From a virus (lineage: Duplodnaviria; Heunggongvirae; Uroviricota; Caudoviricetes), in the IMG/VR virus record IMGVR_UViG_2526164662_000032, positions 1-24,112 of that record: a stretch of 24,112 bases of DNA, one strand, 5' to 3'. Position numbers: made by a program. This document shows positions 6,001 to 9,000 of this stretch, piece after piece. Each line of letters begins with the position of its first letter. The stretch's first letter is position 1.

Positions 6001-9000
6001 AATAGGGAGTTTTATAATGCCGTTAAATTCGGAGATTAGATCAAGCTCATTTTTAATGGATTGAATGTCCTTCGAGCTCAAGTAGCATCTAGCGGTCGAG
6101 GGGAGTTTACATTAGGTAATGAGACTGTCAGCATTGTATTTAATGAAACCGATGGGCGTTTTCTATCCAGCGGCAGTAGTGGGGGATTGCTTACTGAGTT
6201 ATTCCTTTATGGGTTTAATAACGGCCCTGAAGCTCTTCGCGATAGGATGCTCAGTATGCTTTCGGACTCAGGTGAAGCACAATCGCAAGAGAGTATTCAG
6301 GACAAAATATCTCAATGTAAGTTTCCTGTTAGTTCAGGAAATTTCCAGTGCCCGCCAGAGTCTATTCAGTGTCCAATTACACTAGAGAGACCCGAAGAAG
6401 GAGTGTTTGTCAAAAATTCAGATAGTTCGGCAGTATGCTGCTTATTTGATTTTGATGCATTTTCTCGTTTAGCTAGTGAAGGCTCATATCATCCACTGAC
6501 CCGAGAACCAATAACGGCATCAATGATTATAAGTCCTGATAAATGTGTTTATGATCCTATCAAGGGAAACTTCATTATAAAAGATAGTTAAAATATTTTT
6601 CTCTGAGAGAGTATTGGCTGTCAGTAATTTGTAAAAAAACGCCGCAGACATCCAGAATATAAGAAGGTGTCTGTGGTTGGCAGGTTTCAGATGACTTGAA
6701 GGCGTCTTTATGTAAATGCATTTTTCTGTGGAGATGTTGTCGGAAAATATTGGATTAAAAACATAATCCAAGTCAAATAGTAAGTTTGTTTTTTTGAGAT
6801 TGGGTGTGTATTTAGAATTTTTATGATGTGTTTATTTTGTGGGGTATTTTAGAAAAAAATATATTAATCCTTATTAATAATAGCTGCCATCCATTTCAGC
6901 TATTATTTTAAAATAAACAAGTTAAAGCTTAGACTCTTGTTTCTTGGATTATATCAAAGATATCAACATGATTTGATGGATTATGATGTGGTAAGCCATT
7001 GCTTTCGATATCGATTACCACATCCTCTGGATTTGGATGCCGCTGTCCAACAGGGATACCTTCTTCCATTGCGCGTATATCAGCACCTGTGGCATGTTCA
7101 ATATCTGCTTTATTGGGGAAAATAGCTCCTTCTCTTGCGTGCCACCATATACGAGGATAGTCAGTGAATCTAGCTACTTCAAACTCGGCCTTGTTTAAAT
7201 CGGCAGCCCCCAGTGTCGCACCAGCCCACCATAAAATAGTGTCTGGCTTTAATCCAGGGGTATTATACTGTATGGCATGCCCTGCTGCTTGCCCAACCAT
7301 TGCACCGATATGAGGACTTAACATTGGATCTGTACTAGCAAATCTGGATACTGCAAATCCCCCTAAAGCACCAAGCGCATTTGCGGCAGCATTGGTAAGA
7401 ACGGCATATTTAGTATTAGGGTTATCTAAATCCCACTTGAAATGTGCGCCAAACTCCAGCCCTAGAGTTGCCTGTAATGGAGATGCACCATATTTAAAAT
7501 CTGCTTCTCCCGGTCTGATAACCCACTCCTCCGTGTAATTTGCTTTCGGCCCATCAGGAGTAAGTGGTGTTTCTCCAACAAGCTTCCATCCATTTTCAGT
7601 TTTGACTATAGGAAGTTCTACACCATGATTACGAACCACTTGAGCTGTTAATCCAAACCATGGTATTGGGTCTTTTGGCTCGGTGGTTACCGTCGAAGTA
7701 GTGGCTGATGTTCCAGTCGATGCAATAGTCGACACTGCAGTGGTTGATATATTACTGTTGCTTAATGCATTTTTTAACGGGCCAGGAAGGTCTTTAAAAT
7801 TAAAACCTATTTCATCATGCAGAGGGAATATCTGTAAAAAATAATTACCTGATGTAGGATGAATATCTGGTTTTACAATGTTTAGCTGGACACCATATTT
7901 ACCAGAGATGCCTGAAACGGAACTAGGTATCTCTAATGCCATTTGGGTAACATTGAATAAACCAAACATATCCAATGTTTTTTTTCCTATGGATCCTTCT
8001 TCAAGGTGAGGAGCTATATATTCGTCTAGCCCTGAGAGCAGACCTTTATCTTTTATCAAGCTCAGTAGAGCTGTTGTTTCACCGCATTCCGGTGCATGTT
8101 GCTGTATATCATCTGGAATATTAACAACAAATCCAGCTTGGCATCCTAGAGGTAATTCGGATTGCGGTATTTGTGTAGAGGGTATTTGTTCTGTTTGATG
8201 ATGTTGATTGTTTTGTGAGGTGATTCCAGATTGTATGGTCGGTTGAATGTTCATAATAAATCCTTATTACATGTTTATATCCATTAATAATATCAATCCA
8301 TTGATACTATTAGTGTCACATATCCGATGTGGACAGCTTTAATATATAACTGTTTGAATGCTTGATTGATGTGACTTAGATCTCAAAATTAAGTTGTTAA
8401 ATTTACCAGTTTATCGCTTGAACACTTAAAATAAATTATAAATGTTTCTGTTATTGTTTTTTATAGTTTAAATTATTGTTGGTTGTATAAGCTGATTACA
8501 TTTTTACTCTAAGTGTTATAAATATTTTATACTGATATTAGTCTTATTATATATTTTTTTAATGAAAATGAGCATAAAACTAAGACATATAATGCTTGGC
8601 AGCTTTATGCTCTTCTGATTGGCTGTATGTTTGATGACAAAAAATTAGCGCAAGAGGACAAAAAATCACCTTGCGCTAATGCTCTGTCTCAGGTCACTAA
8701 TCACATCTAACTCATTGATTAATTGTGACTCTAAATGTAGTGTTTTGTCGCGTTTTGCAGTCTATCATTTAATCAATTGTATAAATAACATAATGATTTT
8801 TAATGTGTTTTTGTGATTTTATCCTCCTTCTGACATGGAAGTTGTTCGTTCAAAATCTTATTAAATATCAAGTTGTTAAATCTGGTAAGTCATTATTGGT
8901 CAAAATAAAATCATTATCCGATTTCAATTTTGTCCCACTCCCGCCCGCGACTGTCCCTATAATGCGCCGCCATTGAATCAGATTTATGTCCAAGAAGACG

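Follow-up and report, generated by a model that had tools for sequence, protein, structure and literature searches.

The lambda terminator tI is a GC-rich hairpin of the leftward int transcript that is followed by a U tract; on read-through, the U tract and the bases downstream of it pair with upstream bases, and RNase III removes the protective hairpin. In lambda, tI ends and stabilizes the int mRNA initiated at pI (PMC5389636, citing Schmeissner et al. 1984, Plunkett & Echols 1989; PMC5300877; PMC2951348). Transcripts from pL that have been antiterminated by N pass tI and form the longer duplex, RNase III cuts it, and int mRNA decays in the 3′ to 5′ direction; the outcome in lambda is less Int than Xis until the prophage separates sib from int (PMC5389636; PMC5300877; PMC2951348). 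Here we describe two inverted repeats, copies A and B, in a 24,112-nucleotide stretch of viral DNA (Caudoviricetes; IMG/VR record IMGVR_UViG_2526164662_000032, positions 1 to 24,112; hereafter the window), which comprises the right arm, with the effector cargo, of a PPompW-type lambdoid prophage from Shiga-toxin-producing or enteropathogenic Escherichia coli. The element in question, lambda sib/tI, is already known as a terminator and RNase III site controlling integrase; we consider it likely, at a probability of roughly 85%, that both inverted repeats are orthologous copies of the sib/tI of lambda and HK022, now relics.

The core hairpin of copy A (the tI stem-loop, delimited by exact repeat and fold) spans 8644–8680, with the minus, int-sense strand as its functional strand. 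Its arms, ATTAGCGCAAG at 8644–8654 and CTTGCGCTAAT at 8670–8680, form a perfect 11-bp inverted repeat around a 15-nt loop. The original prediction had described this repeat and loop correctly and placed them one base too far left, at 8643–8679; its coordinates for the second copy, and the single change that it noted there, were exact. Copy B is a degenerate sib/tI hairpin at 12321–12357 on the minus strand, with the form ATTAGTGCAAG-N15-CTTGCGCTAAT and a single C→T at 12326, in the 5′ arm. The two copies are part of a longer direct repeat, 142 nt at 77% identity.

When the sequence to its right is included, each copy aligns to lambda 27529–27742 and to HK022 attP; the lambda counterpart of the hairpin is 27543–27578. 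Gap-free comparison with lambda gives 22 of 22 identical arm bases for copy A and 21 of 22 for copy B. The lambda hairpin ends at 27578 and the annotated Int arm site “int 1” occupies 27583–27602, so that 4 nt separate the hairpin from P1; this spacing is kept in the window, and the distance of about 40 bp outside the P arm that had been given for the hairpin was too large. From hairpin to int stop is 235 nt in copy A and 234 nt in lambda (int stop at 27812). Each copy adjoins the P arm from the b-region side of attP and lies downstream on the int strand, copy A in a P-O-P′ arrangement and copy B in the attR form, as in a lambda prophage; the sib-like identity and position that had been proposed by analogy with lambda are upheld by these alignments. 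The near-identical sequence, the matching position, and the matching int-sense fold described below argue for orthology with sib/tI, not mere resemblance.

Existing annotations point the same way. In HK022 (X51962), the homologous hairpin, 197–232, falls within an annotated “sib transcription processing site” (190–239, minus strand) near the annotated “attP site” and int; the HK022 hairpin is identical to that of lambda, HK022 attP is 77% identical across the whole of the attP of copy A, and the outer-stem sequence GAGACAGAGC is common to HK022 and copy A. However, the HK022 core and P′ regions have diverged from those of copy A, and HK022 int is intact. In the lambda-like phage O276 (MH547045, 22367–22406, minus strand), the homologous bases are annotated as “Transcription terminator tI”; the feature spans the homologue of 12316–12356 and of 8639–8680, though the annotation covers the terminator role only, and O276 is a functional phage. 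Relative to lambda sib/tI itself (J02459, 27538–27590), copy A shares the identical arms, the fold, the U6 tract, the G-U-containing outer stem, and the P1 and int-stop spacings; it differs by one substitution and one extra A in the loop. No sequence or structural feature of the lambda element has been lost from copy A; copy B is decayed.

In the int sense, copy A is predicted to fold into a 12-bp stem, a 1-nt bulge on each side, 3 further base pairs and a small loop, and then the U6 tract, which corresponds to the A-run at 8639–8644 of the plus strand; the plus strand has no U tract after the stem. A GC-rich stem leading directly into a U run, as in a Rho-independent terminator, is found on the minus strand only. 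A simple terminator scan, with a loop range of 3–8 nt only, flagged neither hairpin. Predicted energies for the int-sense hairpin alone are −18.5 kcal/mol for copy A, −18.7 kcal/mol for lambda, −18.7 kcal/mol for HK022, and −13.3 kcal/mol for copy B; folding of the leftward transcript and comparison with the lambda sib/tI region, two of the checks proposed for the prediction, each came out in its favor for copy A. The read-through form, with predicted energies of −31.9 kcal/mol for copy A, −29.7 kcal/mol for lambda, and −17.3 kcal/mol for copy B, takes in an extended sib stem at 8636–8688 (minus strand) with 19-nt arms that are 84% complementary. The 7-bp outer stem of copy A pairs GACAGAG with UUUUGUC, and its G-U pairs are possible in the int sense only. 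The 76-nt stretch 8625–8700 as a whole folds at −29.8 kcal/mol (z-score −6.3). By predicted fold, copy A forms the longer duplex expected of an RNase III substrate, and the outer stem of copy B is not formed.

The decay of copy B can be traced to a few positions. The change at 12326 had been taken as G-U-compatible; this holds for the plus strand only, where it gives a G-U wobble, and in the int-sense RNA it becomes a central C·A mismatch. Restoring the C returns the predicted energy from −13.3 to −18.7 kcal/mol, a cost of 5.4 kcal/mol for the mismatch. The outer stem is additionally broken by GAT in place of GAC at 12313–12315 and by AAA in place of TCT or TTA at 12364–12366, and the fold of the 76-nt stretch is indistinguishable from that of shuffled sequences (z-score −1.66). 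On these predicted folds, the terminator competence of copy B is doubtful.

Alignment of eight diverged homologues also favors the int strand. Among pair cells, 94.3% are standard pairs in the int sense as compared with 77.8% in the plus sense, in an alignment where the arms of the genome-derived sequences are fixed by the search pattern. All eight homologues share three G-U pairs; an outer-stem pair has undergone a compensatory change, A-U to G-C, in Citrobacter and in Cedecea, and two pairs of the inner helix vary by G-U-compatible steps. The main arms are invariant and hence yield no covariation signal; informative changes are confined to the outer stem and the inner 3-bp helix.

Viral contigs were scanned with a pattern anchored on the P-arm side only, GCTCTGNNNCAGGTCACTAAT, which returned 130 occurrences (64 distinct 96-mers) in a set that includes other collected loci and the window itself. 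All 130 have the same 3′ arm. In 17 of them the 5′ arm is noncanonical, comprising 11 instances of the copy B variant, 2 single-base variants, and 4 deletions; the 11 copy B variants are at other loci and always carry the IS256-fragment flank. The loop varies in length and sequence, and the loop of copy A, AGAGGACAAAAAATCAC, is the commonest variant. The original prediction had argued for function from conservation of the stem between the two copies in the window; that argument is weak by itself, and it is the invariance across these 130 occurrences that provides real evidence. Per-column conservation leaps from 40–70% to at least 90% exactly at ACAAAAAATTAGCG, and the left flanks fall into at least seven unrelated classes that begin at the outer edge of the extended stem. 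These data place the end of the conserved int-att module at that edge. Separately, in four viral contigs the 5′ sib arm is swapped for unrelated sequence with the junction inside the loop, so that breakpoints, whether from recombination or deletion, can fall inside sib.

Of 5426 complete E. coli genomes, 1793 contain a 71-nt stretch comprising sib and P1, which is found at 2352 sites in total and at most 5 times in one genome; no annotated feature covers this stretch in the eight matches listed. A genome-wide exact-pattern scan returned 30 loci. Matches outside the enterics (Chromatiales, Chromatium, Shewanella, Oceanobacillus, and Kitasatospora) are identical to lambda over 306 bases around the hairpin and attP; two Pseudomonas matches come from contigs of about 48.4 kb, a length equal to that of the lambda genome, and other non-enteric matches from contigs of 0.3–3.7 kb. 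Non-enteric matches are probably contamination by lambda control DNA and were discounted; for the Pseudomonas matches this suspicion draws on contig size, unlike the group with 306-base identity. Three Photorhabdus matches were rejected as apparently unrelated: they consist of a 16-bp perfect palindrome, ATTAGCGCAAGGGCTA..TAGCCCTTGCGCTAAT, that contains the 11-nt sib arms, with no A/T run and no P arm.

The two copies differ in the attachment sites beside them. Copy A adjoins a fossil attP-like site at 8685–8925 (plus strand), delimited by alignment to lambda and HK022 attP and by the lambda Int-site annotation. It begins with a P1 block at 8685–8704, including CAGGTCACTAAT at 8691–8702, followed by the P arm; the core-equivalent, at about 8826–8840, is not the lambda core sequence, and the P′ arm reaches the int stop. 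The integrase is a lambda-family pseudogene at 8914–9908 (minus strand; 73% identity to lambda Int; Pfam Phage_integrase, E 1.9e-38) in which an open reading frame (ORF) at 8914–9654 corresponds to lambda Int residues 111–355. The N-terminal, arm-binding part is frameshifted or missing, with stops upstream of the ORF, and RefSeq likewise annotates the gene as frameshifted, with an internal stop and a missing N-terminus. Neither xis nor pI is present upstream, where a tail-fibre fragment is found instead. Copy A appears to belong to an unrecombined fossil module of b-region end, sib, attP, and int, differing from that of lambda in its att core and in having a pseudogene for int.

Copy B has the lambda core; in contrast to lambda sib/tI, it stands in a genuinely recombined attR with host DNA captured in its flank, bears the stem mismatch, and has no int. 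This fossil attR (POB′; 12362–12590, plus strand) consists of the P arm, the core GCTTTTTATACTAA at 12504–12517, B′, and about 70 bp of host flank. The copy B region is 80.6% identical to lambda 27529–27742, and the 70 bp or so after B′ are 81.6% identical to the E. coli ybhC–ybhB intergenic region, the classical lambda attB flank. The same layout of attR and host flank is seen in the lambda-bio transducing phage DN1, which suggests that the flank is an old capture of host DNA, by aberrant excision, into an effector-carrying phage. An IS256-family transposase fragment (11673–12306, minus strand; a RefSeq pseudogene; Pfam Transposase_mut, E 1.5e-21) cuts short the b-region side about 15 nt left of the extended stem of copy B.

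Neither copy has a functional int in cis, and retroregulation would accordingly be vestigial; both copies appear to be members of the sib/tI family by descent, not working members, and neither would regulate an integrase any longer. They lie 6–10 kb inside the present prophage end, within the effector-gene cargo region, and because of this excision would presumably join neither to a live int. Support for RNase III cleavage and antitermination-dependent decay of int mRNA comes from the lambda literature (PMC5389636, PMC2951348); in contrast to lambda, an antiterminated pL transcript reaching copy A or B cannot be assumed. At most, the copies may still work as leftward terminators. Such a residual role is possible from position and predicted fold: nleA, on the same strand, is the first gene leftward (downstream) of copy A, at a distance of 390 nt, and copy B lies downstream of espO.

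That possibility leads to the alternative in which these fossil tI hairpins have been exapted as terminators or insulators, kept for halting leftward transcription in the effector cargo, with copy A shielding nleA from transcription originating on the int-pseudogene side and copy B terminating the espO-like gene (12793–13071, minus strand). The orientation fits: on the minus strand, where the stem and U6 tract are found, nleA follows copy A and copy B follows espO; an espO transcript would run through the fossil attR into copy B, and the terminator scan (loops of 3–8 nt) found no other terminator-like site on the minus strand between the two. Copy A is intact while its int has accumulated frameshifts and stops, and the junction between nleA and sib is conserved at 97.6% in BP-4795 and related phages. 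However, a 53-nt element can survive by chance while a 1-kb gene breaks, and copy B is weakened (−13.3 kcal/mol, z-score −1.66). Exaptation is compatible with descent from sib/tI and does not replace it as an explanation; we regard it as unlikely, though deserving consideration. The narrower proposal that copy A has been kept for the virulence cargo, as a terminator or RNase III-sensitive insulator that blocks or processes read-through (e.g., during induction) before it reaches nleA, is rather improbable. Were it true, the stacked sib-att fossils would record growth of the effector locus through tandem lysogeny, deletion, and aberrant excision of the lambda-bio kind.

The original prediction implied a working retroregulator, and hairpins that still control the integrase of a functional phage after excision could explain why the fold of copy A is indistinguishable from that of lambda and HK022 sib and why it remains linked in cis, across a complete attP-like site, to an int frame. 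The state of that int, which lacks the arm-binding N-terminus, is disrupted by frameshifts and internal stops, and is preceded by neither xis nor pI, makes this very improbable, as do the missing int of copy B and the location of both copies well inside the prophage end; PPompW prophages of this type are moreover reported as defective (PMC8112680). Nor is there much to recommend a DNA-level palindrome, that is, an accessory site bound by Int, IHF, Xis, or a repressor in place of an RNA element. The invariant arms and the directly adjoining P1 arm-type Int site are what such a site would lead one to expect, but the conserved G-U pairs, the U tract, and the compensatory outer-stem change belong to RNA and are specific to one strand, and GenBank depositors label the element sib or tI. 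The element also falls immediately outside the minimal attP (about −188 to −153 relative to the core center), which would count against a protein-bound site; we give this alternative scarcely any credence. Chance carries negligible weight. In first-order Markov simulations with loops of 3–30 nt, perfect inverted repeats of at least 11 bp are expected 0.2 times per 24-kb window and at least one appears in 13% of simulated sequences, so that a single such repeat is only mildly unusual; however, the specific 22-base arm pattern, allowing up to three mismatches, occurs twice in the window and in none of 100 shuffles, and the 37-mer recurs in lambda, in HK022, in the 130 viral-contig occurrences, and in one out of three complete E. 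coli genomes. Given the homology to lambda and HK022, the question of chance origin is irrelevant, and the same data already refute it.

Several points weigh against our preferred interpretation of the two repeats as relic copies of sib/tI. Covariation support is thin, and the shuffle controls are only marginal. Termination and cleavage at the window copies are predictions from homology and folding only. A search of 8000–13200 with the Rfam covariance models (E ≤ 1) placed nothing over threshold in any curated family, so that there is no curated model to confirm the assignment, and this negative is uninformative; the E. coli Sib small RNAs, the type I antitoxins of ibs/sib pairs, share only the name, are unrelated in sequence and function, and likewise gave no Rfam match in this interval. 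Finally, copy A is fully intact despite its decayed int, and this may signal selection for another role, in which case “relic” would understate its condition.

As relic copies of sib/tI, the two repeats carry little mechanistic weight: they re-find a classic post-transcriptional control site of lambda, which a reader working only from the sequence had placed correctly. Their use is as markers of former phage b-region/att boundaries within composite prophages. The two sib landmarks, together with the ybhC–ybhB flank, indicate that right ends from at least two lambda-family phages were stacked to give the effector cargo, a picture that fits the prophage-in-prophage model as presented in PMC8112680. 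The exchangeable effector loci of PPompW prophages described there (Nakamura et al. 2021, PMC8112680) resemble the present locus in their cargo of nleA, nleH, nleF, nleG, and espM, in having host-derived att sequences within the prophage, and in the second prophage at a 21-bp attB-in-PP_1. A term search of the PMC8112680 text returned no mention of sib, and the portions of the study considered here deal with host-derived att sequences of other kinds and do not describe a fossil lambda attP or attR module. The added value of the two fossils as markers of effector-locus assembly is modest.

The window opens with an IS66-family insertion sequence (ISEc22: tnpA, tnpB, and transposase; 1–2470) that splits the tail-tip gene J and renders the host prophage defective. 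The split J is followed by lom, the tail fibre, an nleG-like pseudogene, nleA on the minus strand, the copy A module (sib A, the complete attP-like site, and the int pseudogene), and a 140-bp duplicate of the tail-fibre 3′ end. Next come nleH, nleF, the IS256 fragment, sib B with its P arm, core, B′, and host flank, a tRNA-Ser-like fragment, espO, nleG, and espM, and then the 21-mer at 18180–18200 and the integrase of a second prophage (18240–19526). The 21-mer, GTCATGCAGTTAATGTGACGG, matches the published 21-bp attB-in-PP_1, which is derived from yecE, with two mismatches (PMC8112680). It is followed directly by the 428-amino-acid integrase and by second-prophage genes that are 99.9% identical to phage ASU11. 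The second prophage sits inside the first at this 21-mer, as described in PMC8112680, and the true end of the present prophage is at about 18200 (18180–18200).

The region at 12616–12711 is approximately 80% identical to an E. coli tRNA-Ser gene; an ARAGORN search of the window called no tRNA, and this region is a fragment only, perhaps left from a different tRNA-targeting integration site. Coordinates of the window were matched by BLAST to the corresponding locus of strain PEC240. The effector gene nleA (6929–8254, minus strand), annotated as such in related prophages, is intact in the window and has an internal stop in PEC240; nleF (11057–11626) is frameshifted near 11405, leaving an ORF of 119 amino acids, and is an intact gene of 189 amino acids in PEC240. 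A candidate terminator for nleA lies immediately 3′ of its stop codon: a perfect 11-bp inverted repeat of AATAATAGCTG with a loop of 10 nt (6876–6907).

The tail-fibre 3′ end and the region downstream of it are duplicated, with 9902–10041 approximately 92.9% identical to 5833–5971 over 140 bp. The second duplicate, directly after the int pseudogene, marks a deletion junction between two stacked phage right arms, and within it a perfect 13-bp palindrome, ACAAAAACCGGAG/CTCCGGTTTTTGT at 9986–10016, resembles a bidirectional terminator. Two tandem 30-bp units, 80% identical to each other, lie at 10413–10472 within the nleH reading frame.

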